Shown one piece after another: positions 15,201 through 51,730 of a DNA stretch of 64,000 nucleotides (within the stretch, counting starts at the first letter, position 1; the number at the start of each line of letters is the position of its first letter). A program made the translations under genes and the position numbers. Under the pieces are notes generated by a model. It saw nothing but the letters and a program-made list of their open reading frames with translations, did no database searches and had not been told where the DNA came from. Source of the DNA: Psammoneis japonica (taxonomy: Eukaryota); assembly GCA_008632985.1 (NCBI GenBank), contig QPGO01000012.1:186001-250000 (forward strand), given 5' to 3'.

Positions 15201-18200
15201 ATTGAATTTTTTAAAAACATTTGAGTCCAAAAATCAAATGGTCATCAAAACAAAACAAAATTTGCACAACATGTGTGGGTGAGTTGAACTGGCAAGTCAA
15301 TGTCACCAAAAAGGAATCCTGCAAGGTCTCTTCTTCCACTTGTTTTTGGCAGTCTTCAGCAGCTGTGGTTTGTCTGGGCATCAAAGCAAACTCTGCAATT
15401 GCTGCAGTGCAGGTGTCTCTTGACACTGATCAACAACAATTGTGTGAAACCAAATGATTTGCTCCAAAGAGTGAGAATGAACCACACATTCAATCAACAT
15501 GGATGACACAAAGAAACATTTGTCTGATCTGTGTTAGAGACAAAAGATCTCCACTTCAATGCAACTGGATCTGGGTCTTTTGTCTTGCCCTTCCAACAGG
15601 GTGGTGGTGACTCCCAACTCCCCATCTTTTCTTGCGTGTCATGTGCCATGTGTTGAGTGTCTCCTCTCATTGGCAACAAATGGTCAACACACCAGAAAAG
15701 TGACTCCTGTGCAATCTGTTGTGCTGCTTTTGTTGCTTCTCAGCTCTAAAAACAAGGCTGGTTGCAGCTGTGTTGTTGATGTGATTGACCATGAGATGGA
15801 GCACTCTGCCCTTCCAACCAAGCTTGAATGAGCCTCACAATGTGACAACATGAGCAATCTTGACAAAATGTGGTGTGCTTCAGTGGAGTCAAGTTCACCA
15901 TTGGACCATCCACAGATCAGACAAACACACCATCTTGCATCTTTACATGCTCTGCATGAACCCAGCAGTTGTGAGACTTGCAGAGAAAATTTCAAACAAG
16001 GGCAGCCCCCCACGATGCAACATCTTTGTTGGGAGCCTGCAAGGCCCAACTTGCCACTTGAGATGTTGGCGGGCAAGCACTTGGGCACTTTCACCATGCA
16101 AGACATGAAGACAAAGGGGTGGCAGATGGCTTGACAAAAAGGGGGGGGGGGGGGGGACATGCCCACCAGTCAAAATGATGGCAGCTCTTTGTTTGCCTTG
16201 GAATTGTTGGCTTGGGCAACAACACTCTGGTGTCCACCAACTCTGCTTTTAGTTTGGTTCTGTTGTCTCTGTTGGATTTGCCATTCTCTCCACCTTCCTC
16301 TGGCATCAAAGGTTGCACCAAGGCAGCTCTTGTTTGACACCCCAGTGCTCACTTCCCACTTTGCTTGACAGCAGAAAAAAAAACAGTTTCTTCTGTTTCA
16401 ATGTCACCTTTGCAGGCCAGTTCCATCCACCTCAATCCCAAGCCAACTGCACAAAAAATTGACATTCTCAGCAAATTCCAGCTGCAGCAAATCTGGCCAT
16501 TGTGCGGACAATTGAATTTGACTGAATGACAGGTTGCATTTTGCTGCAAGTTAGAACAAACATTTTGATTTTAAATTGTCACTTGGTTGTTCCTGGCGAG
16601 CTTTGTTTTGAGTTGCCGGTAGATTGCATCACTTGTTTGGGACTTGCATTGCAGAGATGATGGCAGAGCATTGCTCAACAGCATGCAGACAGCCTTTGGA
16701 CTCCTCTGGGCAGTCAGCCATCTGGGAGGAACTCTGTGCAGCCAGCTCATTGTGTCCTTGGATGTTCCAAGCAAAACCTTGGTGCTCCATTTCCTGTTTC
16801 TGAGCATCAGCACTTGAGGCCCAAGCTGTCAAGCAGCACCCCAGGCTGCACCCTGCAGATCTGCCAGAGCTGCACCTGCTTCTGGCTTGGCTGCCACTTC
16901 CTCAGCCACCACCATGATGGGTGCTCAAGGTGCTGTCCATGACAAAGCATCTCATTGTCCTTGGGCTGTGCTGCAACACTTTGACTGTGTTTGGGTGGTG
17001 TGCAGTTGAGGATGCAGTCATGTGCTTCCTCCAGCATTTTGGAACATTCACCCAAGCCTTGGCACACTTTTGTTCTTGATGCCCATGCAGCAAGATTTCC
17101 ACAGAATGTTTGTGGCTGCATGCCATTTGGGAAGAAAACTGTGCCAGTGATTTCACTTGCTCCAAGCTGCAGCCTTGGCTGGTGCCGCTTCTTTTCAACA
17201 ACCCAGTGGCAACCTGAGCTTCACTTTGCACAAAGTTGGAGCAGCTGATGTGGGGCCAAACATTGCTGTTGATTCTGAATGTCAGCACAGTCTGAGCAAA
17301 TGCCATCACACATGATTGGTGGTTGTTCAGAGCAATGCATGGCACTTGGATTGTCAGCTGCAAACAGCCTCTGGTTTTCACTTTGCCAAAAGTTGGGACC
17401 TGCACCTGGCACACACCACCAGAACCTCAATGAGTCCATTTTTTGCAAATCTCAGTGTGTCACATTGGATGCGCCATTGACAGGCCAGATGGCAAAACAG
17501 CGGCTGTTTTGGATGCAAAAGTGCCATCCCTGTTGCAGTTTTGGGTGCACTGGAGCTGGTCACATGCTGCAGTTCAGTCAACTGTAAAGATGTGCTTTGA
17601 CATGACAGACACAACATCATCTGACCATTCTCTGTTGACTGCAACAAGATCGCAGCTTCTGTGAACTCCAGTTTGGCACCCAATTGATGCGCCAGTCAAT
17701 GTTGCACAAAAATGTTGCTGCAGAGATCTGTTGAAGAGATGCATGGATGATCATGTGTGCACCTTGCCAAAGGTGTGCCATGCAACCATTGTTGTCATCT
17801 CTGCTCTGGCGCCATCTCCAGCATTGCCAGCCAAGCTCCGCACACTCCAGAGGTGCGCGACACCTGCTCTGTGGGCAGCACATGGCACTGCAGGTCAGGT
17901 GATGCAGTGTGGCATCTGTTTGCCAGCCCAGCCCCTGAATCACCCTGACTCAGTGCCCCTTCCCCTTTCCCCAGACGAAAGGGAGAGTGCTTTGTCGGGG
18001 ACTTTGGTGCTCCGCCAAGAAGCAGCAGGGTGTGCTGCTGGCACATCTGGATGACCCAATGTTTGTCTTGATGACAAAGACCCAGACCAGCCAAATCTTT
18101 GGTGACTCTTTTGTGATCCTGGCATGGAAAGCCGTGCAACTGGGGTCTGTTGCAATGGCGAAAGGTGGGGGGGTGAAAACGCGCCACCGCCCACGGAGCA

Positions 18201-18500
18201 GGAACAATTGTTTTTGTGTGAAACAATGATGGGTCCAAGCGTTCCACCTCAGTCTGATGGTTGCAACCGTGCCAAAGATTCAAAATGCAATGTTCACATT
18301 TTACAACAGAAAAGTGTGTGGCCAGAAACTGCTGCTTCCCCTCTGTTTTCATCGCACCGGTCGTGCAAGCATTGCCAATGCTTGAATGCACACCGATTCG
18401 ATGTCTCGCGCAGCGCCGCCGCGGAGAATTCCGCGGAATTCCGAGGCGCGAGCGGCATCACATCGTCGCGCGTTGATCACGTCTTGAAGACTCACTCATC
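12230..18500. other. Hypermutated domain 1 (TpA- and CpG-depleted, TpG/CpA-rich relic DNA)
   Basis: Only scattered TA dinucleotides over ~6 kb; six-frame ORFs are Cys/His-rich and almost Tyr-free. CpG returns near ~18150-18500 while TA stays rare. Confidence 0.9.
12657..12788 (+). repeat. Two-copy tandem repeat, unit ~64-68 bp
   Basis: tggga[c/t]tgtg[a/g]aggaatgtggcacagatggcagag...caccagggcttggcttgt starting at 12657 and 12721. Confidence 0.85.
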
Positions 18501-18521
18501 ATCGCATCTTGAGCGCCTATT

Positions 18522-21540: not shown

Positions 21541-24365
21541 TGTCGAATGGGTACGGGATGGGAGATGGAGATGAAACCAGAGATTGCATTTATGTTCGCT
21601 TCCAGGTTGAAAAGAGAGTCAAGAGTAGCATTAAGAGCGTTGGGCGTTGGAGTTTGGAGTGATTGCGACGCGAGAATTTCAAAATGGGCGTTTAGCTTTC
21701 TTTTCTCGCGCACGTGTGCGCGGTTATTAGACTGTGTAGGTGTGTGTACGTGTGTGAGGTGTAAGTAGGATATACGTAGAATTACTACTGAGTGATTGAC
21801 ATGCCGTGGATTTTCCGCCGGTACACAATCTACGTGGTCTACATGGAACATAAATTTATGTTGGTCTCTGAAGCTATTACATATCATTGATTTTGCTGAT
21901 GCCTCTAATATATGTATATACCAATTCAAAAGTCTGACAGAACACCCCGAAAGAACTCTGGAATCTGAATAAAAAAAATTTCTATTTAACGGTCCGAACA
22001 GGGTCGCCCCGAAGCGCTTCTCAAAATAATAACTACAGATTGAATATAGTGAAACATCTACTATTACCAAAACACAGGGACTATCGGATAAATAGATCCC
22101 GTGGTCTTCGCGCGCAAACAACACGATAACGCACAACAACACCATGGCGAGAAACGCGAACGCCGTCCCCTCATCTACAAGCTCGGAATACGAGATACTG
22201 TTGAAGTGGTTGGACAATATGTATGCGCTGTATTCATGGGTCAAGTTGGGTTTCTTCTCGCTGCTTGTTGTTGCGTCATTTTACAACGTTTTGACCCACG
22301 CCGTTTTCTTTGCTTTGTTGCTTCTGCTCGCGCGCCACCAACAGCTCTTCCTCCAGGGTGTGGCTAGTTGCACGGCTGCATCGAACCCAAACGTGCGCGA
22401 CCAACTAGCCCTACCCCGGCTAACTCATATTTTTGTTATTATCGATCCCGTCTGACCGTGGCCACCAAAAAATTTTCACCGCGAGAAAAAAATCTTTTTT
22501 TTGTGAACGCCACATCCACCATGCTATGTACCGCCGGCCTCAAACGTTCCCGGCGTCCGTGACTGAAATTTCACCACGATGAAGTACGTGAGTCGAATAA
22601 GTCGATTGGACTCAAACGTTCCCGATTTGGCATAAAAAACGGCATGTTGCACTTTGATGTGTCTCGACATGGCAAACTTCGTTGGGTCGACGTATCTTTC
22701 TTGGGGGATCTTTTTCTATTGTTGTTATAAAGAGGTTGATACATTGGTTTGGTTTCCGGGGGGGCTTCGGTTGCGACACACGGTATAAACGGTTGCGTGC
22801 CTCGACTCGTGACTCGATTGCGTCACGGTACACGGTACGGGCTACATCTGAATGGTCGACAACGTTACAGAGGTAAGTTCTTTCTTTGTTTTCTCATTTT
22901 ACACCAATTACATGCTCACTAAAGATGTTGTTTGCGCTTTGTTAAAGCTTCATAGGTGGATTGATCGTCTCGTGCGGTCGATTGTTGCATCTGTGATGTT
23001 GGTGTTTTTTTCGCGGCGTTTGCACCACCACAGCGTATCCGTTTGGGAGCCTTATGCCTCATCCCACTCTACATCCTTTGGTGTACCTATTATGTATATT
23101 AATATGGATTTGTGACGCGCTTGATATCCTTCTTGGGGGCTTGGTCGGCGCATAATCATGGCAAAAGGTTTTCGGCCGTCACAATATTTGGAAAGTGCAT
23201 GCCGTGAAAACAAAACGACGCGATGGAGCCTGGAGGACATTTACGACATTGGCATTTGTCAGACAGTCTTATCATAGTCCAAAAAAGGTAATCCTATGAG
23301 TACAATGTGATTGATTGGCTTTTAGACTCGTTTTGACGAAATTCTCATACCTCACGAGCCTTTTTTTGTGCGTCTCGTTCATGCGTGCAGGTATCTGGTC
23401 CTTTTTGACCCTTTCCACCTACCCTTCAACCGCATTATCATCATTATCTAAGACATGATATTGTCCGCGTTATTTTGGGAGATCTTTGTGGTGTAACTAT
23501 GACTCTAGGCTTTGCAATGGGTAAAATGGGGAGGTTGATGCTTGTGTTGGCGGGCTCATCGCCTCCTCTTGAATGCGTGGATGCCACGAACCGCTGATGG
23601 TACTTGGGGGCATAATAATTGGTAAGGCGGCTCAGCTCTACCTCTAAAAGGTGCACTAGTGAGTATACTGTGATGTGTAACCCCAATGGATTGTCATTGT
23701 GTACGTTGTTCCACTCATATTTTAATTTTGCCTGTCATTTTCCAGCATGACTATCGTTGGCTGTTAAAGCTTGCAGTGGCATTTCCAGGCCCACATTCTA
23801 CATGATAGATATCTTTTGATATTCTTTACTCATATGGGGAAATCAGATCCTGGAGCTCTCAGTTCCTAGTCGGATCTAGTAGAGATGTGTGACTGTTCGA
23901 TGAAATGTGGGATGGAGTGTAGGCGTAAAAGCTGTTGCTTCTGGACGGTACGTACCGCATGCTTACTGTAGAGTGTGTGTGTGCGTACTTCACCATTTCG
24001 AATGATGACTTACCGATCTACTATTCTAAGTCACAGGAAAGATGTCTCTCTACTAGCAGCAGGGAGCACGGTGCCGGCTGTGCACGAGAAGCCACATGGC
24101 AATGAAGACGGTGCCGGCCTAAGCGCAGAAGTCTCCGCTATTGTAGGATGAACTCTCTGGTAGAGAGTGCCACTACTTTTGATTAGAACTTGGTGCAAAA
24201 GGTAAGTGTGATTGAGAAGTTGTGCATTATATATCCCCTTTTAGCACTGAGACTAACGCAGTTCATTGTTCTTTTTGACCCGCACAGACAGCTTCGCACC
24301 GGAGGACAATGCGCGTGAGACAGCAGCTGTCAAAGCTACAGAGGGACACCATTTGTCTCTAGGTC

Positions 24366-27300
24366 CTAGTTCAGGTGAATCTGAAGCAACCCGAAGCTTT
24401 CGAATCCAGGGGAGTTAGAGATATTGTCTTCGCCGAGACAGAGATCGTAGGCAAGCTCAGCCAGATAACCTGCCATTGCCAATTTCTTGGACCAAAGAGT
24501 GCCACCGACTTTAGACTCTTCTAGGTGTTTCAAGGCCTCGGCATCCCATTGGAACAAGCCATCAGGGCCTTCTGAGGTAAGCAAATTTGTGACGTCTTTA
24601 TCACTGCGTGACCACCCAAAGAATGTGACCATCTCAAGATCCTCATACCATCCTTTCTGTTGTGACTTGATTTGCTCTTTCATGTCTCGACCGATTTCCT
24701 TGGATGGATACGAGGAATAGAGAGCATTGTTGATGTGCTTAGATTCGGTGAGCTTAGAGCACTTTAGATGCTCATCGTCTCGCACTCCAAAATTTGTGTT
24801 GGCACCTGAATTCTTTCCCGACCTGACGGGTGTGCAGAAGTGACACAATCCGTGCGCACCTTCCTTCATGCGACGATCTCCAGTGCACTTCTCAGACTGT
24901 GCCTTTGGGTGGAGTAACAAGGATGTAGTGCCACTCCGAAACTCAATGTTTGGGAGGATATGGCCGCGGCTGACCATCAAAGCCGCCATCAGCGTTAGAT
25001 TCTGTTCTGCCCATTGGAGTGTCCAGTGGTTGCGGTGAGTGTCATAGTTCTTGAGTCACTGACGTTTGTGTGTCTCGAGTCGTTGCATCAGAATCGGAAC
25101 TAACTGCACGGTTTGTTGCATTTGCTCCGGACCAAAAGACATGAACTCGTCTACAACCTTGACCGCACTCGCTTGCCACATCGGATTCTCACAGCACGGA
25201 CGACTAACCTCATGGTTAGCAGGATCAACTGGAAGGACAGGAGCAGGAGCTGTGGTCTCACTGGGTAGTTCCTTTTTTTCATAAATGACAGGAAGGTGCC
25301 GAGCCTTGTAACATGAGTAGATGAGCTTGTGAACGAGCGAAGTCGGAGGGGAATCGAACCGCCAACCGGAGTTTTCATCATTCTCAGATTCATCCCTTGC
25401 CTCCGCCAACGTACCCTCATTTGTGTGAAACTTTGACGGCTTGTTTTTCATTGATCGGAAGAAGCGCACATTCATGAATGACTGCAACTGTGAAACGGCA
25501 AGTTTTGCGCACATGTCGATCGATGCCTGTGCCACGATTGGTCCGTCTGACTCATCCATTGCTTGAAGACTCTCGTCGCTGCTCATCATGTCCAGCATTT
25601 TGGATTCCGCTGCCACAGCTTCATCACATGCTTTGTTGTGTGCTGCAATTTCACGGACAAGTTTTGCCTGCTTCTCGGCCCGCAGGCGATCCTGTCGTTC
25701 CTTCCGGGCTGCCCTTTGACCAGCAGAGTCAAGGAGTTTGGCACGCTGCAGGGGTTCTTGCGAAATGCCGGCATCACGCCGGCACATGTTCCCGGCGGGA
25801 TCACGGTCCTCGGGGAAATCGAGTTCATCAAAAACCGTTTCGGGGATGTGACCCCCGTTGTCATCCCACGCTTTCATCAAGGTGGGGAAGGATCGGAGGC
25901 AAAGATCGCACTCTTCTTGGGAGACTTGCCGTTTGACAGCAGACATGACGGACTCAAAATCAGGACAACGCAGAGTTTTCTGGTCAATGACACCGGAGAC
26001 CACGAATCCCTTCAGAATCTTCTTCCGTTGCAACGACTGACGACGATTGTGTCCTTGTCCTTTCCAAGCTGAAGGGGAGTCTTTTCCAGGGCTCTTGCAG
26101 CCTCCAACTTGTTTGCGTGAGCATGGATGTCTAACTCTGTGGTTGTGGCTTGTTTCTTCAGGACAGATTTCGCAGCACTGAAGACATCAGCTTGATCGCA
26201 AGACGCTTCCGATCCGGTCCTTGCAGGGTTGGTCTTGCCGGAGGTTGTCTTCTCTTCATCATCAATTTTCGTCACTTCTGGGGAAACCGTGTTTGCATCA
26301 ATTTGTCCACGGTCACCATCCATGACAAGAATGCTGCGCTCGTCTTCAGCAGGTGCTTGGTCCAAGGCACCCGTGCGGCCTCGCAACTTGTGACGCTGTC
26401 TCTGCATGTGAGGCAAATGGACAAACTTGCGATGCATCACCATGCGCTTGAGCTCAGCTTTGTCAACGCCATCCCTCATGAACAGGACAAAGCCGACACC
26501 AGCATCGACTTTCGCATCGCCTCCTGGACACAGCCCGTGCACGTCCACTGAATGTGCACCGTCCTCGTTGCCGCGCGCATCTTTCGTGTGTCCTTTTCGG
26601 AGTTGACGTTCCGTCATCTTCTTGAACGTCAACATGACTGGCGCGGCTTCTCCAGAAGCAACCATTGTGATGGCAAGTTTCGCTCTGAGGCACTCAAATG
26701 ATGGATCTTTGCCTTTCTCACACTTTGAGTGATTTCCTGCATCTGCGTTGTCTTTGGCAGCGACAACGCGCCATTCTAAAGGGTCTCCAGGTTGGGGGCC
26801 TTTCATGGCAGCAAGCCCAGTGTCGTCCATTCCCATGTTGAGGGATGTGCTCATCGGATGTGCTTTGTTTCCACGACATGTTTCAACAAGGTCAAGAAAG
26901 GTTTTTGCACCTGTGGTCAGGTTGGAGACCACGTTTTCAAAGGCTTTGTCCTCCCCATCGACAAACATCGTATCGGCGCACAGAATGACCAAGGTTGCGG
27001 CGGCTCGCAAGGAGCGTTTGGCCGTGGCGCGATTGTCGGTCTTGCACTGCGTCGTCTTGGTTGTCGACAATTCACCATTCTTCCCCAGAGCCAACCTGCG
27101 ATGCCTCTTGGCTTCTCTTGTGGACACGGCCGTGTTTTCCGCTGTCGGAACGACACTGCGCTCCATCATTTTGGTGCATTTGTGATCTGCCAAAGCTGTC
27201 TTCATTTCGTCGAGCCCGAATGACTCACCGTCGTTTTGAACTGACTTCTTGCCAATCACTCGAATCTCGTCGTTTGAGGCAACTGGTGCGTTTCCCCTGG

Positions 27301-27922
27301 CGTGCCATTCTGTGTGCATGGGGTTGCCACTCGAGCGACTTTGAACCATTTTGTTGCCAGCTCGTCGCGCAGTGAAGGGAACCAGCGAGTGTTCCATTGC
27401 AAAGTCAATGGCTTTGGCGCGATCTTGTTTGGGAATCGTCAAAGCCATGTCAGCAAATTCCATCTTGCTGCACATTTGTGTTTCCTTGTTTGCAGGCATG
27501 CGGAAGTTTGCATGAAGATGACGCGGTGGCTCAAGCAGTCGCGGTCTCTTGTTTGTGGCATGCGCCCCTGGTTTCGGCGGCTGGTTTTCTTTGTCATTCG
27601 CACTTCGGCACACGTCCTCTGGCACGGCGAGGGAATTGGACGGACGTTTCGGACCGGCGGCTCTTGATTCTTGCGATCGGTCCATGCTCACATTCTCTTG
27701 CATTTGCTTCTGGCGGGCTTTTTCACCATTCAAATGACAGTGGATGTGCTGAACGTTGGGGAGTTGAGTGGCGCGAGCTGCTGTCATGGTCGCTCCTTTT
27801 GTCGTCGCTTGCGAAATGGAAAGGCTGTTTTCGACAACTTTGAGCTTGCTAACGACTTCTTTCAACTTCCGCTGTGATGCTTTCTTCCCACTGTTCAATG
27901 TGTTCTGAACCTCCATCAACAC
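24366..27922 (-). mobile_element. Degenerate large ORF, probably a pogo/Tc1-mariner-like DDE transposase, broken into three ORFs (26012-27922, 25056-26033, 24366-24989)
   Basis: Candidate catalytic triad MDDT / ILVMDG / KTNPARTGSEASCDQADVF, resembling DET / LLLDG / P..T...QP.D..VF, followed by ILKGFVVSGVID. No TIRs found. Confidence 0.55.
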
Positions 27923-28860
27923 GTTTTGCTGGTGTCACATGTCTGAAGCGACAGCAGAACTGTCGAGAAGACCGTCGAATGCATTGTCCATTTGGGATTT
28001 TCGCATCGACACAGCGGCATTTTCTTCTGCATCCTTGAGCGATAAAGCAGCAGATGAAGTGTGCAGATGACTCATGGTTTGTCGCTGTTCTTTGCAGTGT
28101 TTGTTGGAGCTGTGGCTGCATTTGAAACAATGGCGGCATGGTCATTGCGGCGTTGGCGTTGACCCGTCGCGTCGGAGGGAATTCAAATCTTGCGCGCGTC
28201 ATCCTTCACGCGCGGCGGGAATGTTTGAGGCAACGGCAACGTTTGAGGCCGCCGGCAGCATGGCGACATCTTGATCTCAAGCAGGTCCAGTGGGCCGTTG
28301 CGGCCTCTCCATGAACCAACATGGAGCGCACTTAAAGAACAGCACTTCGTGCGGAATTGCCAAGAAGACGGAGGTCGCTGCTGTTTTCTGTCGACTCAAA
28401 ACTCCTGGTCACCATGCTTTTGTCCGGAAGCCCGCACACAAAACACGCCAAAGTGTCCCGAGGTTTTGCAAACAATGCAATCGATGAAATGGAACAAGGG
28501 TGGTCAACAGATCCTTTGAAGACACTGAAGCGGTCTGGGGGTGTTGACTCTTGGTTCTTTAAGAAGACAGACGAGCTTGTTTTGTTGGAACAATTGCACC
28601 GCGAACAACCAACCGCGCAGCCTTTGAAGCTGTCGCAGGCAGCTTTTCGGCACGCAGGAACACTGGCATCAGAAATGATGATTTCCATTGCTGGTTTTTC
28701 ATTGATTTGTGCATGGCAAGAGGATGTCTCCGACATGGAGATGTGTTGGCACTCGACAGTGCGTCGACTCACCTTTGTCAATCTCTCGATGAGTGGCTTT
28801 TCAATGAATTTGTCATTTTGCTTCTATTTCTGCTGTGCCAACTTGCTCCCTCAAGTTAAA

Positions 28861-29249
28861 GACACGTTCCAGGTCCAGGTGGGACCTCGCACTGCTGAGC
28901 TGTGACATCGACAGTTTTTTGAATTGCGTTGTATGTCGCGCACATACATTTCTACGTGATTTTGGCAAAATTTTGCATCATTTTGCAGTGCAATTGTCAG
29001 GCGATCCATTCAACAACTTTTAACATTTTTTTCTTCTGCGCCATTCTCGAGTGTCTTAAGAATGGCGCAGGGCAGGCGCGTTGTCCAAAACTTCAAGTAC
29101 GAACAGAGACACATGTGCTGCAAACTTGGCCGTTCATTTTGTGTTGAAGACAAACATGCCCATTAACCAGAGCATGAACTGCAGAGCTCGCACACAGAAT
29201 TCTGCGGGGCAAATGTCACAAAAAGTCCCACCCAGGACTGGAGCCCGTC
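28861..29249 (+). mobile_element. MITE family A, copy 1 (389 bp), TSD TAAA
   Basis: gacacgttccaggtccaggtgggac ... gtcccacccaggactggagcccgtc; taaa at 28857-28860 and 29250-29253. Colinear with the copies at 60741 and 63054. Confidence 0.92.
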
Positions 29250-29739
29250 TAAATCCCACAGAGAGGATGTGGCATGCACCAGTGCCCACTTGCCGCAGGG
29301 GGGNNNNNNNNNNNNNNNNNNNNNNNNNNNNNNNNNNNNNNNNNNNNNNNNNNNNNNNNNNNNNNNNNNNNNNNNNNNNNNNNNNNNNNNNNNNNNNNNN
29401 NNNNNNNNNNNNNNNNNNNNNNNNNNNNNNNNNNNNNNNNNNNNNNNNNNNNNNNNNNNNNNNNNNNNNNNNNNNNNNNNNNNNNNNNNNNNNNNNNNNN
29501 NNNNNNNNNNNNNNNNNNNNNNNNNNNNNNNNNNNNNNNNNNNNNNNNNNNNNNNNNNNNNNNNNNNNNNNNNNNNNNNNNNNNNNNNNNNNNNNNNNNN
29601 NNNNNNNNNNNNNNNNNNNNNNNNNNNNNNNNNNNNNNNNNNNNNNNNNNNNNNNNNNNNNNNNNNNNNNNNNNNNNNNNNNNNNNNNNNNNNNNNNNNN
29701 NNNNNNNNNNNNNNNNNNNNNNNNNNNNNNNNNNNNNNN

Positions 29740-30270
29740 GATCTTGTTTCTTGTTTGTCCTTGCTGCTGGCAGCCTTTGCACACAAAGAGCATCTTTGTT
29801 GTGTCATGTCCAATGCTTCCTCCAAGGGAATGGCATCATTGCTTGGAAACACTCATGAAAACATCTTGTGCAGGATCTTGAATTTGTTTCATCATGTTTG
29901 AATCCACCTTGTCACCTGATCTTTGAGTGGTGACAGCGCGCGGCTGCTTGTGTTCTGCACTCAAATTTCTGTCACCCTGCTCTTGCAATTGTCTCAAATG
30001 CAGAAGTTTGACCAAAGGCAAGCTGCAACTCTTTTGCCAGGCTTCATGGGGGGCATTGCAAGACAGTTGCCATGGTGCCTGTTGTGAGCACAATTGGTTG
30101 TGATGGCAGAGCTTTGCCACAAACACATGCCCGCTCTTGCAGTCAGTGGCATCATGTGTCACAAATCAGTCACTTTGCCTTTTTTTGGCAAAGACAATGT
30201 TTTTGTGCATGGCTTGTGAGTGTCATTGCTTGCTGCATTGGACAATGGCATCTCTGAACAAGCATGAGAT
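29740..30270 (-). pseudogene. Hypermutated partial duplicate of the DTW gene (5' half)
   Basis: 29881 aatttgtttcatcatgtttgaatccaccttgtcacctgatctttgag aligns to 21181 aatttgtttcataatgtttgaatccaccttgtcgcctagtcttcgag. Peptide remnants GDKVDSNMMKQIQDP and FPSNDAIPLEEAL. Confidence 0.92.
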
Positions 30271-30429
30271 GGGGGGTGGGGAGGGAGTGTGTTGCACTTT
30301 GTTTGGTGTTTGGGCATCTTGCACTTTAGATTGTTGGCAACCCTGTGTTTCATGTGACTGCAGGATCCTCTCACAAACATGCTGTGGTCACACATGGCAC
30401 CTGTCCAGACAGAAATTCACTGTCAATGT

Positions 30430-31140
30430 CAGACATGGCTTTGACCATTTTGGCAAGGATGGCTGGTCTTCTGATGCAAGACTTCACAATGTCCTCTCTG
30501 CTGCTGCCAGAAACTTTGGGTCATGGGTGTGGCCTTGAAAGCTTTTTTTGTCCTTCTGCTTGGGGCACTGAGCACAGCTCTCATTGCATCAGCAAGAATC
30601 ATGTGCATCTCACACCTGTGCTCTCGGCAGTTTGGAGAGCACACACATCTTGGCAACCTTGAGCAGAGCAATTGGTCAGTTCTTGGTGTTGGCCTCAAAG
30701 TTGGACCTGGTGAGCAAATGTTGTTCTTTGTGGCCTCGGAGCACCTTTCCCAGAGCAAGGCATGAGCCTCAATGAGGCCTTTCTCACAGGTCTGAGTCCT
30801 CTTGATGTGAACAATGTCACACTCTGTCTTGAGCTCAACATTGGCAAACTGCTTGTTCTCAGCTGTGGCAGATTCTTCAAAGCAGCTGCAGTGTCATTTC
30901 CATTGTCATGAGCCTTCTCTTGATGTGGTTGACAATGAATGGAACAGCAATCTAACAATCAGATGCTTGGCAGAGCCAACATGCTGGCAGGCACAATTCT
31001 TGATGCCCTTCCTCTTGGCAGTGGCAAACTTGCCACTCTTGCTTTCCTCTTCCAACAAAGGATCCTTTTCCTTGGCTTGTCCTTCCATTTCTCTGTCTTG
31101 TTCTTCCACTCATGATGGATTGATGAGACGGCAAAAACAT
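30430..31140 (-). mobile_element. Probable Ty1/Copia (CoDi-like) gag relic
   Basis: Fragments AHALLWERCSEATKNNI and NCREHRCEMHMILADAMRAVL resemble diatom copia gag as recalled, with Tyr positions read as His/Cys. Not database-verified. Confidence 0.5.
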
Positions 31141-32599
31141 CTCCACCAAAATCTGTGAGGTGACTCTCGTTTGCTCTGTTTTGTGGATTTCTCACAGCTT
31201 CAAGCTGGACCTGTGTCTCTTTCATCTGTTGAAATCTCCCCCCCTTCTGTGGCCATTCCAAAACCACTTTCAGTCCTCTGAGGCTGATCCTGGGGGGGGG
31301 GGGGGCAAGATTCAAACAAGATCAATGGCTGTTTCCAAGCATCAGATCACGTGCCTCGTGGGTGATGTTGCAACAAGCATGTTTTTCCTTCTTCCACATC
31401 ACACTGTCTCTCTTGGGCAGTTGAGCTTTTGGCCCAACGATCAATGAGCGAGCAAGTGGAGACAATGAGTGATGGCAAAAACACCTTGAACCTGTCACAC
31501 TGCACCAGGTGCAGCATCCAGGCAGATCCCAACTTGAACCCTTGTGTGATGCACCTTGGTCCAAAGATCTTAAAGAATGGCCCAAACTGTCAGATTTGAA
31601 GGCTTCTTGTGCGTGGCACAACAATTGCTTCCGCAGTTGATCACCATGAGAGGAAACAAGTCCAAGGCCACATGGGCGAGAGTGGCAAGCCAGCGATCAC
31701 AAGCTGCCAAAGCATGCTGCCCTTCAACTGCAACATTTGTGACTTGGGGAACCACTGGATGAGTGGCAGTGTTGTTTGCAGGAGGGTTGTCAGGGAAGGG
31801 AGAACCAGCGGGCATGCCACAATCCGGTTGCTTTTTGATGGGCTTGACAAAAAGGCAACCAAGATTTGTGAGACCGGCAGCAACAGTGATGCTGGGGCCC
31901 AGAACTTGAGGATTCAACATCTAAAAGCCCATGGTCAGAAAGAAGAGAGTTTGAACAGGAAGCAAAATTGAAGAAGCATTGCAAGAGACATTGCAATTTG
32001 TGACATCTGTGCATCATGGATGAATGATGGAACCACACTGCCATCACAATGCTGTCTTCCATGATGCATGATGTGAAAGAACAAGAAATGGTCAACACCC
32101 ATCACATCTGCCCTTTGCCGTCAAAATGGATGCAATGCTCCAACATGTGTGCAACAAGCTCACATTGTGGGGGCTGTTTTGATGAGTCCATGTGTGCACC
32201 ACTGATGGAAGACATTGGGCACCTCTCTGCCAGATGACACCACATCACAATCTTTGCTCGAGCAGATTTTTAATCTAAAGCTGACCAAGTGGCAGGTAAA
32301 ATCTTACAAAAATGTCCTGGACCTGACAATCCGAATTTAGTCGGGGACAAGTGGATGTGCAGGAAAGTGGCCAGCTCGGCCAATCTAACCCTGGCTGGCA
32401 CTCTAACTAGAGGCAGTCACTTGCACCACCACCGCCGTTGTCAAGAGAGTGCTGCAATGTCCCCAGATTGCTGTGGGACTGCACAGACTGGGAGCCAACA
32501 CAAGTGCAGTTTGCAACAACAAGAGAGCACCAAATTTGGTGTGGCATTGTTTCCTGATGGTTGAGTCGTCACTTGGCACTTTGTGCTTGGTTGTCTTCA

Positions 32600-32990
32600 A
32601 CAATGGTGACAACAACACTCAGGAACTGGTGCACTCCCACCACCACTTGCTGACCTTGACATGTTTGCATCCATCAGTGGCACAAGGTTGGTCATTTGGG
32701 ACATCACCAAACACGCCATCAGTGGCCGCATCAATGATGGCATGAGCAGTGTCATCACCAACAGTGTCACACATGCACAAGTTGAACTTGGTGTCATGCG
32801 TGCAATCCCATTTTGGACTCATGCCATCAAAGGGACAAGGTCCACAAGGAAAGTCATCAAAATCCTCCCCAGTGGGGACCAATGTCCCATCCGCCACTGT
32901 GTTGGCACAAGGAATTCTGTGCTGGCCCCGGACCAATGCCAAAGGAAGAAGTGCAGCCACAAGTGCAAAGAGAAGAGAGTTCTTGATCAT
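32600..32990 (-). pseudogene. Relic of a secreted Cys/Asp-rich protein gene
   Basis: Signal peptide MIKNSLLFALVAALLPLALVRG; ends in VKVSKWWWECTSS, a motif shared with the relic at ~33.9-34.3 kb. Confidence 0.45.
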
Positions 32991-33929
32991 TGTCATCATT
33001 GTCAACAACAAATGAATGGCAAAAGAGAATGCAACCAACAACACCAAGAGGCGCTAAAGTGTGTCTTGTGAAGACGCAGCATTGTCAGCAGAATGAGGGG
33101 CTTGCCAGTCAATGATCTGTTTTGATGCTGGCCACATGCCACACGTCAGCAATCCACATCAGCACTGTGCACCACAGACCTGCTGCACAGCAGATGCATC
33201 ACTGCACACACACACAGCAGCATCATTTCCTGTCATTGTTTTTGTCCATGACGTGTCATGGTGATGCCAGCTTCTTTGCATGTGCCCATCTACAGCAGCT
33301 GCTTGTGCAGTGCCAGCAGCAGCTGGCTGGAGCAGCAGCAGCAGACGGAGGGTCCCACCAGCACACACCTCGTGCAGTGCAGCACTGTGCATGGCATGCT
33401 GCACCTGCAAATTCTTCATCATTTAAGACATGGATTTTTGGGTCTTGAGGAGCTCATGACATTTGTCTTTTTCTTGGCCAATGTCCCATTGGATGGAATG
33501 AAGATGACCTGTGCATTGAACATCTGCCACATTGTTTGCTGTGCAGTGTGTCTCATGACACAAACTTGCTCGACAGAAGAACAATCTCAAACAAACACAA
33601 AAATTCTGATGTCATCACTTCCAGGAACATCGTGCATGATGTTGTGATGGTTTTGACAGATGTTGTTCTCATGGCAACAGCCCAGAGATGTCTGAGCACA
33701 GAGTTTTGGGAACAAGCCGTGTCAGGATTTTTGCAAGAGCACTCTGAAGTTTGAAGCTCCCCACAACTTTTTTGCCAGCTCGCTGCAACAAGCTCAGCCA
33801 TCTTCATCATGTCTCAAGAGCTCACAACCAGTGCTCAGCTGGCTGCTCAAGGAACATGAGAACATGCACTTTTTCAAAACAGCATGATGCTCAAATTGCC
33901 CACCAGTGGGGGCAAGTGGGGTGAGGTCA

Positions 33930-34340
33930 CCAAAAACCACCGTGCTGGTGGCTTTGATGGCCATGCTCCTGCTCACACTGTTGAATCAATTGCAAGCATT
34001 TTCAGCTCCATTGCAAGAAAGTCAGGATGGTGTCAAGTTTTCAAAATGGTGGGTTGAGTGCACAACCAGCCAAAGGGCAGACATTGGCAATGCCAGTGCG
34101 GAAAGGTTTGACCTTGTTTGTGGGCAAAAACCCAGCAAGTTGGATGATGTTTGTGGTGTGCTCAACATGGGTCTGCCTGTGAACAAGCCAGCCTCTCCAA
34201 ATGAAGACAACAATTTTCTTCCTCAGCCAGACAAAGAAGATTTGGCTCCTGAGTTTGAAATGCCGCCCCTTCCCAGTGAGGGCCATGTCATGGGTGCTCA
34301 AGCTCCTGCACCACCCCCTCAAGAAAACCCAAGAAGACCA
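33930..34340 (+). pseudogene. Relic of a related secreted protein gene
   Basis: Hydrophobic leader VLVALMAMLLLTLL, then VKFSKWWVECTTS and a Pro/acidic tail. Confidence 0.4.
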
Positions 34341-35169
34341 TGTGCCACTGGGCATCTGGCAAATCTTGCCAACACAGCTCCACATGCCAATGTTTGCAAG
34401 AGAGTGGTGCTGGCATGCCCAGTGGCATTGGCTCAGGGCATGGCATTCACTCTTTTGGAGGTGTCTGTGGGGCAACCTTCTTCACAGCAGCACCCCTCAA
34501 GGCAGTGGCTTGGCACATCATGGCACCAATTCCCTCAACTTGTGCACCCACCTCCTCTCATGTCCTTCTGCATTGTCAGGTGATTGCAGGTGTGCTGCAG
34601 CAAGTCCAGTGAGTGAGATGTCCAAACTTTTCCAGAAGCATCAGATGCATGTGGAGAAAGAGCATGGATGTCACAAGGAGGAGTGTTGCAAACATGGTCA
34701 GATGACCAACTTGTTGACTGGAGCAATTGCTGGTGCTCTTGTGACATGCATGCACTCCTCCTCTTGCTCTCATGATGATGATGAGCAAAAGCCAAGTGTG
34801 TGTCATTGGGGCTGGGACTCAATTGTTGCAGCTTCATTTCAACAGTTTGCCACTGCTGTTGTGTCAGCAGTTCACCAGGCAGTTTCAACAGCAACTGTTG
34901 TGATGATGATGACAAGAGTCAACCATGCATGCACCATTGTGACCAACTGTCATGAGGACTGCATTGCTGCATTGTTTTGCATTGTTGTGCTGGCACAGCA
35001 CAGTTTTCACAGCAAACCACACAAAAGACTGTCATGGTCATGATGACAAGTGGCAGCCATGTGTGCTTCATTGTGATGTGTGAGACAACTCAATTGTTGC
35101 AGCTCAGTTTCAACAGTGCAACAGTTGCTCTGCTTCATTGTCATTATGGCACTGATCCAAGATGCAACC

Positions 35170-36300
35170 AGCATCAAACAACATTTCTGGCATTTGCACA
35201 CTGGCAATCTGATTCATGCCAACTCAAGAAGTTGAAAAGTTGTGCAGCAGAACCATCAGATGAATTGTGGTCCTGCACTCTCCCTGTTCTTTACAGATGA
35301 TCTTTTCTGCAATTTGTTGGTTGCTGCCTTGAATGGCCTGTGCATGTCCCACTCAGAAAGCTGCCACACAGGTGTGGCATCTCAGCCAATGAGAAGGTCT
35401 TTGGCATTCATGGCATCTTGTTGAGATGATGTGATGAAGTGCTTTTTGTTGCTCAAATTTAAAGCAGAGTCCACCACTGCCTTTGCACCTGTTTCCCTGC
35501 ACACTTGCTCACACTTGTGGCAAACAAGGCCATTGTCAGCTTGCACTGAGTTGTGCCACACACTCCAGGGGATTGATGTGCTCTGCAAGTGAGAATCTTC
35601 CCTTTTGCATTAAAAAGAAAAACATGCTGTTCAAACAATGACCATGCATCCATCTGTCATTGAAAATTGTGCTCTGCATTCTGCCATCCTTGGAGGCTTC
35701 CATGGGTGACTTGAGGCCACCAACCATCATCCCAGACACCTTTGGTTTTCAGGAATGGGGCACTTTGGCTCTGTTGTGATGATGCACCTCAACACCCTTG
35801 CTGCCAGTGAACTCTCTGCCTTTGTGTCAGGACAACCTTGCAAAGCAAAAAGAAGCACCATCATCCAAACTGTGAAAAGTCACACAAAACTGTGTTGCAG
35901 TGCCGGTCATTGTGCAAAGACCAAGAAACAGCCCCTTTTGTCCAACACCAAGCATCCAACAATGTAAAAGGAATGTGACCTTTTGGGCAGTTCTTTGACA
36001 AACCTTGCAGCAGTGCATGGTGTGTGCATGTCATGCAATGGTTGGAATGCATCCAATGGAGCCTCAAAGGCATCATGATGATCACGTCCTGCTGCTGCAG
36101 CAATGAGAGCTTGGTCATTGTTAAATTCACACAAGTGCTGAAAGGTGGACGAACTCAGGCCCTGAAGACATGGGCGTGTGGGACATGCTTGTCTGTGCCT
36201 GCATCAACCCTCCATGGACAACATGCTCCTGAGTGAAACGCTGTTGTCCTGGTTTCTCACATGCCCCTCCGTGATGAAAAAGGGTTGAGATCATTTGCAG
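35170..36300 (-). mobile_element. PIF/Harbinger-like (DDE_Tnp_4) transposase relic
   Basis: Ordered remnants DQALI..GRDHHDAF, VGGLK (DGLK), PWSVWHNS (PGSWHDS), GAKAVVDSAL, DATPVWQLSEWDM (ATSVRQLSEWGM) and HLMVLLHNF; frameshifted. Confidence 0.75.
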
Positions 36301-38739
36301 GGTCAAGCATCGTTCATGCTGGCAACAACAATGGCACATGAGTGATTTTTGTGCCACACACCATGCAATTTTTCAGATGTCTGTCAGAGTGAAAACAAAG
36401 ATTTGCTCTAAAAGTTTGTGTGCTCTGAAAAAGATTTAGATTGGTGGCCCAGGTGGGCAGCTAAAAAATCTGTCAAAAACACACAAATCTGTGCATTTGT
36501 GCATTTGTTTTTCAGAGCAGCCCAGTGCTGCACATGCATGGCCCTGTCACAACAGGCCCTGCTTGTCAACTGCCAGGTCATTGTGACAATGAGCCAAGAG
36601 GATGCATTCAGGATGATGCAACGGATGGACCAGGTCAACGGCAAAGTTCAAATTGTTTGGCTGGTGGTGTCCATTGTGTTGTGAACATGGAGCCTGTCCA
36701 TGACACACTGTGTTGTTTTAATTGCAGTTGTTGCATGCCAATCACAGCTGTGCTGTTCCAAATGTGGTGGTTTGCTTTGTGTTGGTTGTTTGTTCTGCCT
36801 TGTTGTTGTTGTTGTCTGCAAAGCAAAATGCAGCAGCGGCAGCATCATGTCAGTCATCAGAAGGAAATGTCAGGGAAGCACCATGTGGTGGTTCTTGTTT
36901 TTGCTTGGCACTGACTGCACTGCTGCTGTTGCTGCTGTCATCATGGCTGTGGTGCAGTGGGTCATTCTTCTTGTCATGACAATGTGCGTGCATCATTGTC
37001 TCCAAACCAACAATGAGCCTTGCCAAGCAGCAGCAACACTGATGTTCACGACCATGTCCTTTTGGCACCTTGTGGCAACAACAAGATCTAGAACACCCCA
37101 ACAAAAAGAGCAAACAAGACACATCACAAGATGCCAGTCCTTGGCATTTTTGGGATGATCAAGAAGATGATCAACCCACCCAACTAGATTGTGCTGCTTG
37201 TTCTGCTTGTGATGTCTTATCAGCAGAAGGCTGTGGTGTGACATGATGTGGCAAATCAATGCCATTTTCATCAACCACACTCAAGATGCCAGACAAGACA
37301 TGATGAAACAAGTTCAAGAGGTGCGCCATTTCTGTCAAATGTGGATGTGCATGTGCCCAACATTTGGACATTGCAAACATTGCACAACAAAGTCAAATGT
37401 TCAAGTGGGAAAAAAGAGAAAGCANNNNNNNNNNNNNNNNNNNNNNNNNNNNNNNNNNNNNNNNNNNNNNNNNNNNNNNNNNNNNNNNNNNNNNNNNNNN
37501 NNNNNNNNNNNNNNNNNNNNNNNNNNNNNNNNNNNNNNNNNNNNNNNNNNNNNNNNNNNNNNNNNNNNNNNNNNNNNNNNGGGGGGGGGGGGGGGGCAGC
37601 TGGCACAGGAAATCTCTTTCAACAATCCAATGCCGTGCAAATGCGTCATGTCATGGCACTTGTCTTGGCCTGTCTGGGAGTTAAATTGACAACACTTGAC
37701 CTGACCAATGTGTTGCCATGCAGGATTGGTTGCCATGGGATTGGCCAAGATGCAGGGCAGTGCCAGTGCAGAAACTGACTTGATGGTTTGGGGTGTGAGA
37801 CATGCTGAACACAGCTGATGCTAAAAGGATTTGTTCTTGCAACAAGCACTGCTGCAAAGCACCAATGGCAAAGCACCCATTGTCTGGATGTGTGGATCCA
37901 AATCAGACTGGAGCTTCTTGTTGCAAATGATGACACAAGTTGTGATGGTGGATGCTGTCCCATTGTGATTGCAGCTTGCAACATTTGGGGTGTGTTGACA
38001 TGCTCCTGATGAACATCATGCCTGCTGTTGGATCAACCACATGGATGTCCCCATTTCCAACATGTGCTTTCCCAATGTCACACAGGCAAAGCACAGCATC
38101 GCACCAGTTTGAGTGGAAACCAGGTTGGCACCAATGTCAGCAAATGGGACAACTGCCTCCCCCTGTCTTGCTCAGTGCCTCACAGGCCAAGATGCCCTGC
38201 AAGTCTTCATGAATGGAGCCATGGTTGGGCTGCCCTTGGGTCCCTGTGATTGGCACATGACAGAATGCCACCAAATCATCCAAGCCAAGTTGGTGACTTT
38301 TTGTTGGAGCCCACCACCACAGATGGTGCACCAAATGGCAAGGCATGCTTCCTGCATGGGTCCACACTCTGGCATTGCAGGGAAATGAAAAAGTGCGCGC
38401 AGCTGGCATGCCAAAGCATTGCCAACCTTGTCAAGCCAGTGGTGGGTGTGGCAACATTCCCGCCAATGCTGAGTCCTCCCTGAAAAGGACACGTGCACAT
38501 GGAAGGACACAACATGCATGTGATGCTTGCTTTGACAATCCAGACCAAGGGTTGCCCAACACCTGACATTGTCAGCAGCATGTCAGGACAAAGACACCTC
38601 ACATCATCAGAGGGCAATGTTGATGATGAAGAGGATGCTCTCATCAAGGACATGCCACTGGCACTTTCATGGATCCACTTCTTGTTGCTCTTCTTTTTGT
38701 CCTGGCACTCCCCATGTTTTGACATGGAGAGGAGTTGCA

Positions 38740-39095
38740 ATTGCGCGGCAATGTCTTTGAACCACTTGCCAAGGCTGGCCTTGTTGGCAATGTCATTGTG
38801 GGTTCAAGATTTTGCCAGTGTGAGCTGGACTTTTCAGCAGAGTCCAAGGCAATGCATGGTTTGCCCTTGCCAATGACAGCAGTGGAAGTGACAATGCTGT
38901 ACAATGAAGCAAGAGTGTCTGTTGATGAATTTTCTGAAGAAAGGACAAAAAACCAGTGACACCCTCTGGCCTGGTCTCATGTGGAACACCCCACATCACA
39001 AATTCTTGGATGTGTGATCCTGTGTGGTGTTTGCTTTGGCATGCTCACAAGTGGATCAAGAGCACATTTTGTGCTTTTGAAAGGGGACACAGTGA
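38740..39095 (+). repeat. Diverged direct repeat, copy 1, of a protein-coding relic domain
   Basis: VFEPLAKAGLVG..GSRFCQ..AMHGL..SVDE..LWPGLM..TPHHKFLD..ACSQVDQEHILCF; matches 42720-43110. Confidence 0.85.
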
Positions 39096-51700: not shown

Positions 51701-51730
51701 TGCATGATGGCAACAGATGCCACATAATGC
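48720..51730. other. Hypermutated domain 3
   Basis: TA almost absent. CpG is partly retained at both edges and lost in the middle. Confidence 0.88.
48770..49210 (+). mobile_element. 3' fragment of an RLE-type (CRE-like) non-LTR retrotransposon
   Basis: RGDLL..FWDR..DIRIPDTDAKSH..HEREKKRKC..FTPFV.S..GLFGKEA..ARMS...VRATH.CLRGS..QWEDGAGL is a restriction-like endonuclease C-terminus. Confidence 0.8.

Follow-up and report, generated by a model that had tools for sequence, protein, structure and literature searches.

Separate and nested loss of TpA and CpG at a Psammoneis japonica locus, with a TpA-loss front inside one transposase-like gene

Introduction

How can a gene keep its TpA steps toward one end and lose nearly all of them toward the other, while CpG persists in the part that has lost them? 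This question is raised by a 64,000-nucleotide stretch of DNA from Psammoneis japonica (GenBank assembly GCA_008632985.1, contig QPGO01000012.1, positions 186,001 to 250,000 of the forward strand; the whole stretch is called the window below), in which a front of TpA (TA) loss runs through a transposase-like gene on the minus strand. An initial annotation of the locus, made from its letters and reading frames, held that TA loss is uncoupled from CpG (CG) loss, that it is no by-product of 5-methylcytosine (5mC) deamination and that it follows chromosomal position rather than the limits of elements.

The reading that we consider probable, though well short of certain, is that silenced DNA of a diatom-like alga, foreign or repetitive, is mutated by two processes that are distinct and nested one inside the other. 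The first (process 1) would change TpA to TpG or CpA, that is, A to G on either strand, with the A followed by a pyrimidine (T-A-Y) far more often than by a purine (T-A-R); it would be fast and would cover the whole silenced tract, its periphery included. The second (process 2) would be the ordinary decay of CpG to TpG or CpA, presumably by 5mC deamination; it would be slower, or aimed at a narrower target, and shows only in the cores of such tracts.

Results

TpA is lost where CpG is kept

The GC content is ~48% across the window, and its normal DNA (31.5 kb pooled) has observed/expected ratios (O/E) of 0.62 for TA, 1.02 for CG and 1.15 for CA/TG. Two adjoining tracts depart from this composition:

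25413..28824, no strand: TA-free, CG-keeping zone (TA O/E 0.02-0.06, CG O/E 0.84-0.99, GC 51-53%)
24366..25412, no strand: partial TA-loss zone between normal DNA and the TA-free zone (O/E 0.48, then 0.36)

The first of these bears out the initial description of 25.4-28.8 kb as full of CG and almost devoid of TA. Its 3412 bp hold 7 TA against 117 expected at the normal-DNA O/E of 0.62, and 218 CG against 237 expected at 1.02 (pooled O/E 0.04 and 0.94); the 33-mer that had been quoted as a CG-rich example was located at 25768-25800. GC rises by about 4 points in this zone, as a change of TA to TG or CA predicts. ApT stays steady everywhere (O/E 0.93 in normal DNA, 0.89 in the eroded cores and 0.91 in the TA-only zone), so that the loss is specific to the TpA step, and AA and TT steps are not reduced in eroded DNA either.

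Toward the left the TA O/E declines stepwise, from 0.88 (23500-24366) through 0.48 (24366-24800) and 0.36 (24800-25412, with 28 TA remaining in 24366-25412) to 0.02 (25413-26500). A change point falls at 25320, placing the front at ~25.32-25.41 kb, inside the middle reading frame of the gene described below.

Other parts of the window combine the two losses in different proportions. In the cores (12.3-17.6, 30.0-43.4 and 49.3-51.0 kb) TA and CG O/E are 0.05 and 0.12, with CA/TG raised to 1.88-1.98, while 60-63 kb is intermediate (0.06 and 0.57). Together with the pair 0.04 and 0.94 at 25.4-28.8 kb, these values sustain the claim that TA loss can be separated from CG loss. The apparent decay ratio, ln(CG)/ln(TA), is ~0.03 at 25.4-28.8 kb, ~0.25 at 60-63 kb and ~0.85 in the cores, and differences of more than 10-fold between regions do not fit a single process of fixed specificity or rate. 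As for the independence from 5mC deamination, TA to TG or CA is an A to G or T to C change and therefore cannot arise from it.

CpG loss lies inside TpA loss

The edges of the eroded DNA were placed by change-point fits, and nesting was scored in 124 N-free 500-bp windows. Apart from the two tracts above, four domains were delimited:

12225..18515, no strand: domain 1 (TA loss 12225-18515, CG loss 12095-18130)
29700..43795, no strand: domain 2, the core adjoining the TA-only zone (TA and CG both nearly gone, CA/TG O/E ~1.9)
48570..51535, no strand: domain 3 (TA loss 48570-51535, CG loss 49490-51580; no right rim)
59960..62945, no strand: domain 4, intermediate state (TA O/E 0.06, CG O/E 0.57)

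Both steps were low in 41 of the 124 windows. Among the 54 windows low in TA, 13 keep mid or normal CG, and among the 63 with normal TA none is low in CG; CG loss is thus always nested inside TA loss. Rims that have lost TA only lie at 18.13-18.52 kb, at 48.57-49.49 kb and from 25.3 kb up to a gap at ~29.3 kb. Two of the smaller rims that had been listed at the outset are therefore present, the second being wider than the 48720-49100 first given, but the one placed at 51560-51730 is absent: TA (51535) and CG (51580) change there within 45 bp, and TA density in 51560-51730 is already 3-4 per 100 bp. The two edges likewise coincide on the right of domain 2 (CG 43705, TA 43795), and at the right edge of domain 4 the change points are 62945 for TA and 63025 for CG. 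Between the TA-only zone and the core of domain 2 lies the gap of 592 N (~29.3-29.7 kb), which hides the exact start of CG loss on that side.

The front lies inside one transposase-like gene

Three minus-strand frames cover the front and its surroundings (lengths in amino acids, aa; ORF, open reading frame):

26015..27934, minus strand: transposase-like pseudogene, its N-terminal and catalytic part (640 codons between stops, 636-aa ORF; 0 Tyr)
25059..26186, minus strand: middle part of the gene, in a different frame, holding the TA front (colinear blastp matches)
24369..25055, minus strand: C-terminal part of the gene (207-aa ORF), in frame with the middle part behind one stop; normal Tyr (2.6%)

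A word-indexed protein search with the 636-aa ORF gave no match, and relatives surfaced only in an exhaustive HMMER search, in which the 636/640-aa frame retrieved 105 of them at E<=1e-3 and 37 at E<=1e-10 (best 1.4e-26). These relatives (P0001-P0105) are known almost only from metagenome assemblies. The first frame aligns to residues 177-652 of P0019 (1258 aa); by blastp, the middle frame aligns to residues 706-840 of P0019 and 655-857 of P0010, and the C-terminal frame to residues 1019-1247 of P0019 and 976-1208 of P0066. The same colinear order of the three frames is found in P0010, P0035, P0066 and P0005. Since all three are colinear with the same ~1150-1260-aa proteins, they represent one gene of ~1200 aa, interrupted by one stop at 25056-25058 and, near 26.04-26.08 kb, by one frame change or more. 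The front thus runs inside a single gene, in agreement with the initial annotation, and the segment at 24.4-25.4 kb is not a different, younger insertion but the C-terminal quarter of the same protein.

The term transposase-like holds by the predicted fold of a relative and finds no counterpart in Pfam. No Pfam family was detected in the three window ORFs, nor in the 17 and 21 relatives scanned, and a profile search against the sequences of the PDB returned nothing meaningful; the ESM Atlas gave DDE_1 clusters only at scores of 0.75-0.78, a lead that we did not use as evidence. Modelling was carried out on the relative P0001, not on the window's own eroded protein. The AlphaFold2 model (39-row alignment, mean pLDDT 87.2) has the Mos1 mariner transposase as its best structural match (E 7.7e-5, probability 1.00), followed by the catalytic domains of Metnase, Sleeping Beauty, Mu and TnsB, with low TM-scores (0.28 and 0.41). 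The relatives share three invariant acidic (D/D/D) columns, and the window copy keeps MDDT, MDGDRGQI and CDQAD. The gene is best filed under a new family with a predicted mariner-type transposase fold, unnamed by profile libraries. Its members are unannotated proteins of ~1150-1260 aa, in which the mariner-like catalytic fold is accompanied by a conserved C-terminal module of ~230 aa.

Within the window, tblastn with the 105 relatives detected no other copy of the transposase, and a comparison of 24.0-29.27 kb with the rest of the window (blastn and tblastx) found only a 390-bp repeat. Short motifs on either side of the gene are candidates for the ends of an element:

22531..22624, plus strand: candidate left subterminal motifs, two GGCCTCAAACGTTCCCG-like copies (inverted-repeat pairs I1, I3 and I8 with 28206-28255; tentative)
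28206..28255, minus strand: candidate right subterminal motifs, inverted (pairing with 22531-22624)

If real, these motifs suggest an element of ~5.7 kb (~22.5-28.26 kb) with the front near its middle; a clean terminal repeat or target duplication was not found at the candidate ends.

Tyrosine codons are rewritten and the frame stays open

The tyrosine counts that had first drawn attention to the front were reproduced, with 0 Tyr in the 636-aa ORF and 5 in the 207-aa ORF; the first Tyr codons of the ORF between them lie at 25317-25319, 25308-25310 and 25281-25283 (LIYSCYK, VIYEKK). Tyr makes up 0% of the 640-aa piece and 2.62% of the C-terminal piece, compared with 2.59 +/- 0.87% in relatives longer than 300 aa. 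These relatives, with one Tyr invariant in 15 of 15, answer in the negative the question of whether intact homologues are naturally Tyr-free in this segment, and the invariant Tyr is His in the window copy. At positions where the consensus of 15 full-length relatives is Tyr, a comparison that rests on residue pairs only and not on codon or coordinate columns, the TA-free part keeps none of eight (His at three, Cys at one, and Arg, Leu, Ala and Phe at one each) and the C-terminal piece keeps two of four. In the C-terminal ORF, one column at which 9 of 10 relatives carry Tyr has already turned to His. In the 640-aa piece Ile is lowered (2.0% against 5.75% in relatives) and Met raised (4.2% against 2.56%), with Ala also high, as predicted by ATA to ATG or ACA and GTA to GCA. 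A further relative with little Tyr, P0084 (0.16%), was considered as another eroded copy and dropped, having a weak four-stretch match to a fish protein.

With TGA as the only remaining stop, the probability of 640 open codons is ~5e-7, and the other two frames of the same strand hold 21 and 22 stops. The 640-codon frame therefore reflects a real coding history and is not a by-product of TA loss. By the genetic code, TA to TG or CA creates no new in-frame stop, since TAA to TGA exchanges one stop for another and TAA or TAG to CAA, CAG or TGG removes stops, while CGA to TGA makes them; this accounts for frames that are open in the TA-only zone and shattered in the cores. In all eroded tracts, both strands carry numerous Tyr-free ORFs of 120-290 aa that overlap one another. 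The disappearance of TAA and TAG explains them, and it has a consequence for annotation: such tracts are full of long spurious or fossil Tyr-free ORFs that gene finders would overcall.

Paralogues and other copies give the direction of change

A self-BLAST of the window yielded pairs of paralogues split between normal and eroded DNA. The first involves a host gene fragment:

29741..30238, plus strand: eroded copy (~500 bp) of a DTW-domain gene fragment (source 21038-21527, not eroded; 75% identity)

Here CG has become TG or CA at 26 of the 32 sites of the intact copy, and TA has done so at 9 of 13. A further 7 of ~75 CA/TG sites show double differences between CA and TG, as would follow if an ancestral TA or CG had gone to CA in one copy and to TG in the other; such differences may serve as a marker of independent erosion.

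The second set is a repeat of ~390 bp:

28866..29250, plus strand: repeat copy, partly eroded (self-BLAST to 60746-61133 at 87% and to 63054-63443 at 79%)
60746..61133, plus strand: repeat copy, eroded (self-BLAST)
63054..63443, plus strand: repeat copy in normal DNA (26 TA, 31 CG)
63630..64000, minus strand: inverted repeat copy running off the window, facing the 63054-63443 copy ~180 bp away, in normal DNA

The stretch around the first copy (28825-29270) has 10 TA and 18 CG. From the 26 TA of the 63-kb copy, 5 are still TA and 15 are TG or CA in each eroded copy, and 13-14 of its 31 CG are still CG in each. Three ancestral TA sites read TG in one eroded copy and CA in the other, and six more losses are private to one copy, which shows independent hits.

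Other copies of the transposon were read from contigs of one public DNA run (one sample, one study) under the same organism code, which may be the assembly's own sample and thus confirms the letters without being independent. On 23800-29200, 1809 contigs match at 85-100% likeness (281 at >=99%, 496 at 95-99%, 683 at 90-95% and 349 below 90%), and they differ in letter at 528 places, 454 of them transitions. Among 40 differences listed (497 more exist), TA in other copies stands against TG or CA in the window at least 10 times and CG against CA or TG at least 6 times, the window keeps CG where other copies have TG or CA at least 4 times, and at least 3 are swap pairs between TG and CA (e.g. 26246-26247, 26257-26258 and 27595-27596). 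Some of the TA differences fall at 23889-24285, so that the left part of the window copy has also lost a few TA, in line with the graded O/E. Contigs also match the TA-free stretch without any difference, e.g. at 27231-27468. In the same run the 390-bp repeat reaches a summed contig depth of 147,109, against ~35-40 for single contigs, which points to thousands of copies; as its copies are intact in normal DNA at 63.05-64.0 kb, repetition alone is not enough for erosion.

The changes show no bias of strand: codon junctions read NNC|A in 87 cases and NNT|G in 76, and Tyr has become His three times and Cys once.

Surviving TpA steps share a sequence context

Throughout the eroded DNA (28.9 kb pooled) 88 TA survive, and 59 of them lie in Y-TA-R, compared with 224 of 1318 in normal DNA (odds ratio 9.9, p 3e-23). 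They are divided into TTAA (21), CTAA (19), TTAG (11) and CTAG (8). The fewest survivors are found in R-TA-Y, 4 against 387 in normal DNA of similar length. Because a TA is lost if the A of either strand is hit, the survival of Y-TA-R implies that an A before a purine is a poor target and that T-A-Y is preferred. The paralogue alignments follow the same trend in small numbers, TA having survived at 4 of 12 Y-TA-R sites and at 1 of 18 R-TA-Y sites. No comparable bias was seen in the context of surviving CG, a further sign of two processes.

Genes of the window and other features of the eroded domains

The frames of normal composition encode a glutathione S-transferase, a light-harvesting chlorophyll-binding protein, a GNAT acetyltransferase, a CAP-domain protein, a cytochrome P450 (one 566-aa frame), a DTW-domain protein and a kinesin. 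The named relatives of the light-harvesting protein are diatom proteins at 65-79% identity, among them a Fragilariopsis 'fucoxanthin chlorophyll a/c protein' and transcripts labelled Eucampia, Thalassiosira, Leptocylindrus, Attheya and Pseudo-nitzschia.

In the eroded stretches as a whole, 242 ORFs of >=70 aa (28 from the stretch around 25.4-28.8 kb) gave no credible Pfam domain; six families were reported, all under their curated cut-offs. In domain 2, with 107 such ORFs, the sole family at E<=0.001 was CANIN (20.2 bits, under the curated cut-off of 25 bits).

Three local features were also recorded. Within the otherwise TA-free 14 kb of domain 2, the segment 32001-32500 has eight TA (O/E 0.25), perhaps because it was inserted later or is less exposed. 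Where a TA-only rim ends on its outer side, 18400-18500 holds 17 CG in 100 bp, ~340 bp upstream of the P450 frame opening at 18836, and may be a CpG-dense promoter or the end of an element. Finally, a 64-bp unit occurs twice in tandem (86% match) at 12656-12784, within eroded domain 1.

Discussion

The direction and specificity of the changes, their nesting and the front inside one gene are the observations that an explanation of this locus has to accommodate. With two nested processes, 25.4-28.8 kb would be a part of a DNA-transposon pseudogene saturated by process 1 and barely touched by process 2. There, codons such as those of Tyr and Ile (ATA) would be rewritten with the frame remaining open, and in the cores CGA to TGA would break the frames. 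The nesting itself is predicted in either of two ways, by a CpG decay that is much slower in combination with a young zone, or by a CpG methylation of smaller territory. The front would mark the end of most editing tracts or of the silencing mark on chromatin that guides them, and it may also be a recombination joint. With regard to the idea that it follows chromosomal position, the many copies of the family mean that a recombinant of eroded and intact copies, or tracts of limited length, would mimic such behaviour.

TpA hypermutation is not without precedent, as it has been described once, in another alga. A literature search for TpA-specific hypermutation of foreign DNA found a single relevant report, a preprint on Bigelowiella natans, and none for diatoms. 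According to the main text of that preprint (Mettrop et al., bioRxiv 10.64898/2026.01.13.699255), 231 of 302 nuclear mutations in mutation-accumulation lines fell in integrated giant-virus (NCLDV) and virophage regions, and 230 of the 231 de novo mutations of viral regions were A to G or T to C, with all GC-biased ones on TpA. Mutations arose at ~6e-7 per site per generation, only a part of the lines showed hypermutation, and the mutation rate of the hypermutable regions was locally raised about 1000-fold (bioRxiv 10.64898/2026.01.13.699255). The same text describes 124 TpA-poor, CpA+TpG-rich clusters, with DDE and reverse transcriptase domains enriched in TpA-poor coding sequences, notes a preference of TadA/ADAT/ADAR-lineage adenine deaminases for a 5' U/T, and proposes, without proof, an ADAT2-like adenine deaminase as the enzyme (bioRxiv 10.64898/2026.01.13.699255). 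As reported there, the spectrum is essentially without C to T, which fits a TA process running without CpG loss. From the reported figures (211 mutations, 6169 TpA, 3132 generations) we calculate ~1.1e-5 per TpA per generation; at this rate, which belongs to another organism, the TA O/E would fall from 0.62 to 0.04 in ~2.5e5 generations. By analogy, we infer for process 1 a host-directed editing of this kind, which a TadA/ADAT-like adenine deaminase acting on DNA would perform.

Several points weigh against this reading. Eukaryotic ADAT2/3 tolerates purines 3' of its target and ADARs prefer a 3' G, so that the T-A-Y preference agrees more closely with bacterial TadA than with the eukaryotic enzymes that have been proposed. 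The fall of the TA O/E from 0.36 to 0.02 within ~100-700 bp is abrupt for a diffusion-like spread. For the window, 'silenced', '5mC' and 'ongoing' are words that we infer rather than observe. The 63-kb repeat copy differs from the other two by 40-41 transversions and is therefore of another subfamily and stands in only imperfectly for the ancestor; of 12 TA sites changed in both eroded copies, 9 changed alike, so that a part of the losses counted against it was inherited; for both reasons the repeat was dropped as a clock for the relative decay of TA and CG. Much of the CA/TG excess in the cores is due to CpG loss. Finally, when the preprint's cut-off for clusters is applied (Rho CpA+TpG >= 1.52, from which the O/E of the window may differ slightly; bioRxiv 10.64898/2026.01.13.699255), the cores lie above it (CA/TG 1.7-2.4, TA <= 0.1), while the TA-only zone, low enough in TA, stays narrowly below it in CA/TG (1.36-1.50).

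Other explanations were weighed on the same evidence. The front could be a joint left by recombination or gene conversion, a mosaic of a TA-eroded copy on the right and an intact copy on the left, in which nothing spreads. The family is indeed multi-copy, with the 1809 contigs of one run on 23800-29200 at 85-100% likeness, and the fall from 0.36 to 0.02 at ~25.41 kb is abrupt. We nevertheless hold this to be unlikely, since TA loss is graded to the left of the step (0.88, 0.48, 0.36), the left part has itself lost TA relative to other copies, and TA-only rims are found at two other domains; in addition, a joint accounts for the front only and not for the TA process.

Rather less likely, in our opinion, is a chemistry that acts on T instead of A, with a modified thymine in R-T-A, for example through an oxidation of the 5-hydroxymethyl-uracil type in silenced chromatin, mispairing with G to give T to C. 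Hydroxymethyluracil prefers TpA in dinoflagellate DNA. TA to CA on one strand is indistinguishable from TA to TG on the other, and R-T-A is the complement of the T-A-Y context, so the pattern by itself would suit either base; on the other side, the sole experimental precedent proposes adenine deamination, also without proof in its main text (bioRxiv 10.64898/2026.01.13.699255).

A deamination coupled to transcription from the element's own promoter, as in the somatic hypermutation of antibody genes, would erode the 5' 2.5-3.5 kb of the transposase unit and spare the 3' end. The orientation is right for it, as the minus-strand gene runs from 27934 to 24369 and TA loss covers its 5' two thirds and ~0.9 kb upstream, fading toward the 3' end. 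We judge it improbable given the strand symmetry (NNC|A 87 and NNT|G 76; Tyr to His three times, to Cys once), the rims at 18.1-18.5 and 48.6-49.5 kb, which always adjoin CG-poor cores, and whole domains of 6-14 kb that are TA-free.

Slightly more improbable still would be a single deaminase that attacks both A in TpA and C in CpG, the TA-only zone being an earlier time point. It would explain why CG loss is never seen without TA loss, and ADAT2 enzymes are said to edit A and C in DNA, as cited in the preprint (bioRxiv 10.64898/2026.01.13.699255). The decay ratio, however, varies more than 10-fold (~0.03, ~0.25, ~0.85), surviving CG lack the context bias of surviving TA, and 230 of the 231 B. 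natans hypermutations are A to G or T to C in the same source.

The last alternative, that the sequence is naturally TA-poor through selection or foreign composition, or is an artefact of sequencing or assembly, has nothing but bare composition in its favour and is already contradicted, to the point of being very hard to credit, by relatives with normal Tyr whose conserved columns are His or Cys in the window, by the direction of change in the paralogue comparisons, by contigs of the public run that match without difference (e.g. 27231-27468, the run not being independent) and by normal DNA within a few hundred bases on the same scaffold.

Going back to the two nested processes, the light-harvesting protein suggests that the host is probably a second lineage with TpA hypermutation, and not a chlorarachniophyte. 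On this basis we propose, giving it an even chance, that diatoms share a TpA-directed editing defence of the chlorarachniophyte type, which acts on chromatin tracts and not on repeats as such, prefers T-A-Y, saturates in evolutionarily short times and precedes and outreaches the decay of methylated CpG. If true, this would be an old layer of genome defence, possibly SAR-wide (stramenopiles, alveolates and rhizarians) and independent of 5mC, and also the first natural DNA editor of the adenine type whose footprint is legible in many algal genomes. The footprint, TA-free and CA/TG-rich tracts, can be read from any assembly, and its presence at saturation in a diatom-like genome would mean that the process is no peculiarity of a single lineage. 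What is new in the present case is that the TA process is separate from CpG decay in both space and kinetics and always encloses it, that the preference for a 3' pyrimidine constrains the enzyme and that the process can stop inside a single gene.

Comparison with known systems

With the Tc1/mariner DDE/D transposases (Mos1, Sleeping Beauty, Metnase) the gene shares the RNase-H-like fold predicted for a relative and the three acidic motifs. It differs from them in its length of ~1200 aa, three to four times greater, and in belonging to a family with a large conserved C-terminal module, no Pfam match and low TM-scores (0.28, 0.41). Tc1/mariner elements end in terminal inverted repeats with a TA target duplication, which were not found; for the window element only short candidate subterminal motifs in inverted orientation, and no clean termini, were found.

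Repeat-induced point mutation (RIP), as known from Neurospora and other ascomycetes, resembles our case in destroying mobile DNA by transitions only and in leaving kb-scale domains of skewed dinucleotides beside normal genes. RIP changes C to T mainly at CpA, giving TpA, so that CpA and TpG fall; the eroded DNA of the window moves in the opposite direction, with TA O/E 0.04-0.06 and CA/TG O/E 1.3-2.0. Moreover, RIP is triggered by duplication and mutates both copies, whereas the source DTW gene (21038-21527) and the repeat at 63054-63443 keep normal TA and CG and the copies in the domains are eroded.

The decay of CpG by 5mC deamination would leave a signature like the change of CG to TG or CA at 26 of 32 sites of the eroded DTW paralogue and the CG O/E of 0.12 in the cores. 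It cannot make TG or CA from TA, and its signature is absent in 25.4-28.8 kb (CG O/E 0.94).

Hypermutation by deaminases (AID/APOBEC, hyper-editing by ADAR and the adenine base editors derived from TadA) has in common with the window clustered transitions with a fixed neighbouring base. AID/APOBEC enzymes give C to T on DNA, ADAR acts on double-stranded RNA, and we know of no natural eukaryotic enzyme proven to deaminate deoxyadenosine in genomic DNA at such a scale. An ADAR-type hyper-editing of an RNA intermediate, which would be confined to one strand and to the element and would favour a 5' U and a 3' G, was considered and rejected, as there is no strand bias (87 against 76), a host-gene fragment and flanks are also hit, and T-A-R sites survive.

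The closest system is the hypermutation of B. natans as given in the main text of the preprint. In both, TpA becomes TpG or CpA on either strand in local, kb-scale tracts of foreign DNA, and the TpA-poor, CpA+TpG-rich clusters with DDE-type genes among their coding sequences have their counterpart here in a target of apparent transposon origin, with its predicted transposase-fold gene and multi-copy family; other A/T dinucleotides are spared in the window (ApT O/E 0.93/0.89/0.91). The two differ in the host, a chlorarachniophyte there and an alga with a diatom-type light-harvesting protein here, and in extent, the NCLDV region having a Rho of 0.45 and the window a saturated TA O/E of 0.04. TA loss in the window is nested around CpG decay and prefers a 3' pyrimidine, whereas the main text of the preprint makes no mention of CpG, of context beyond the dinucleotide or of boundaries. 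To this kind of process the window would thus add a new host lineage and three features: CpG decay nested within TA loss, a preference for T-A-Y and a front that falls within one gene.

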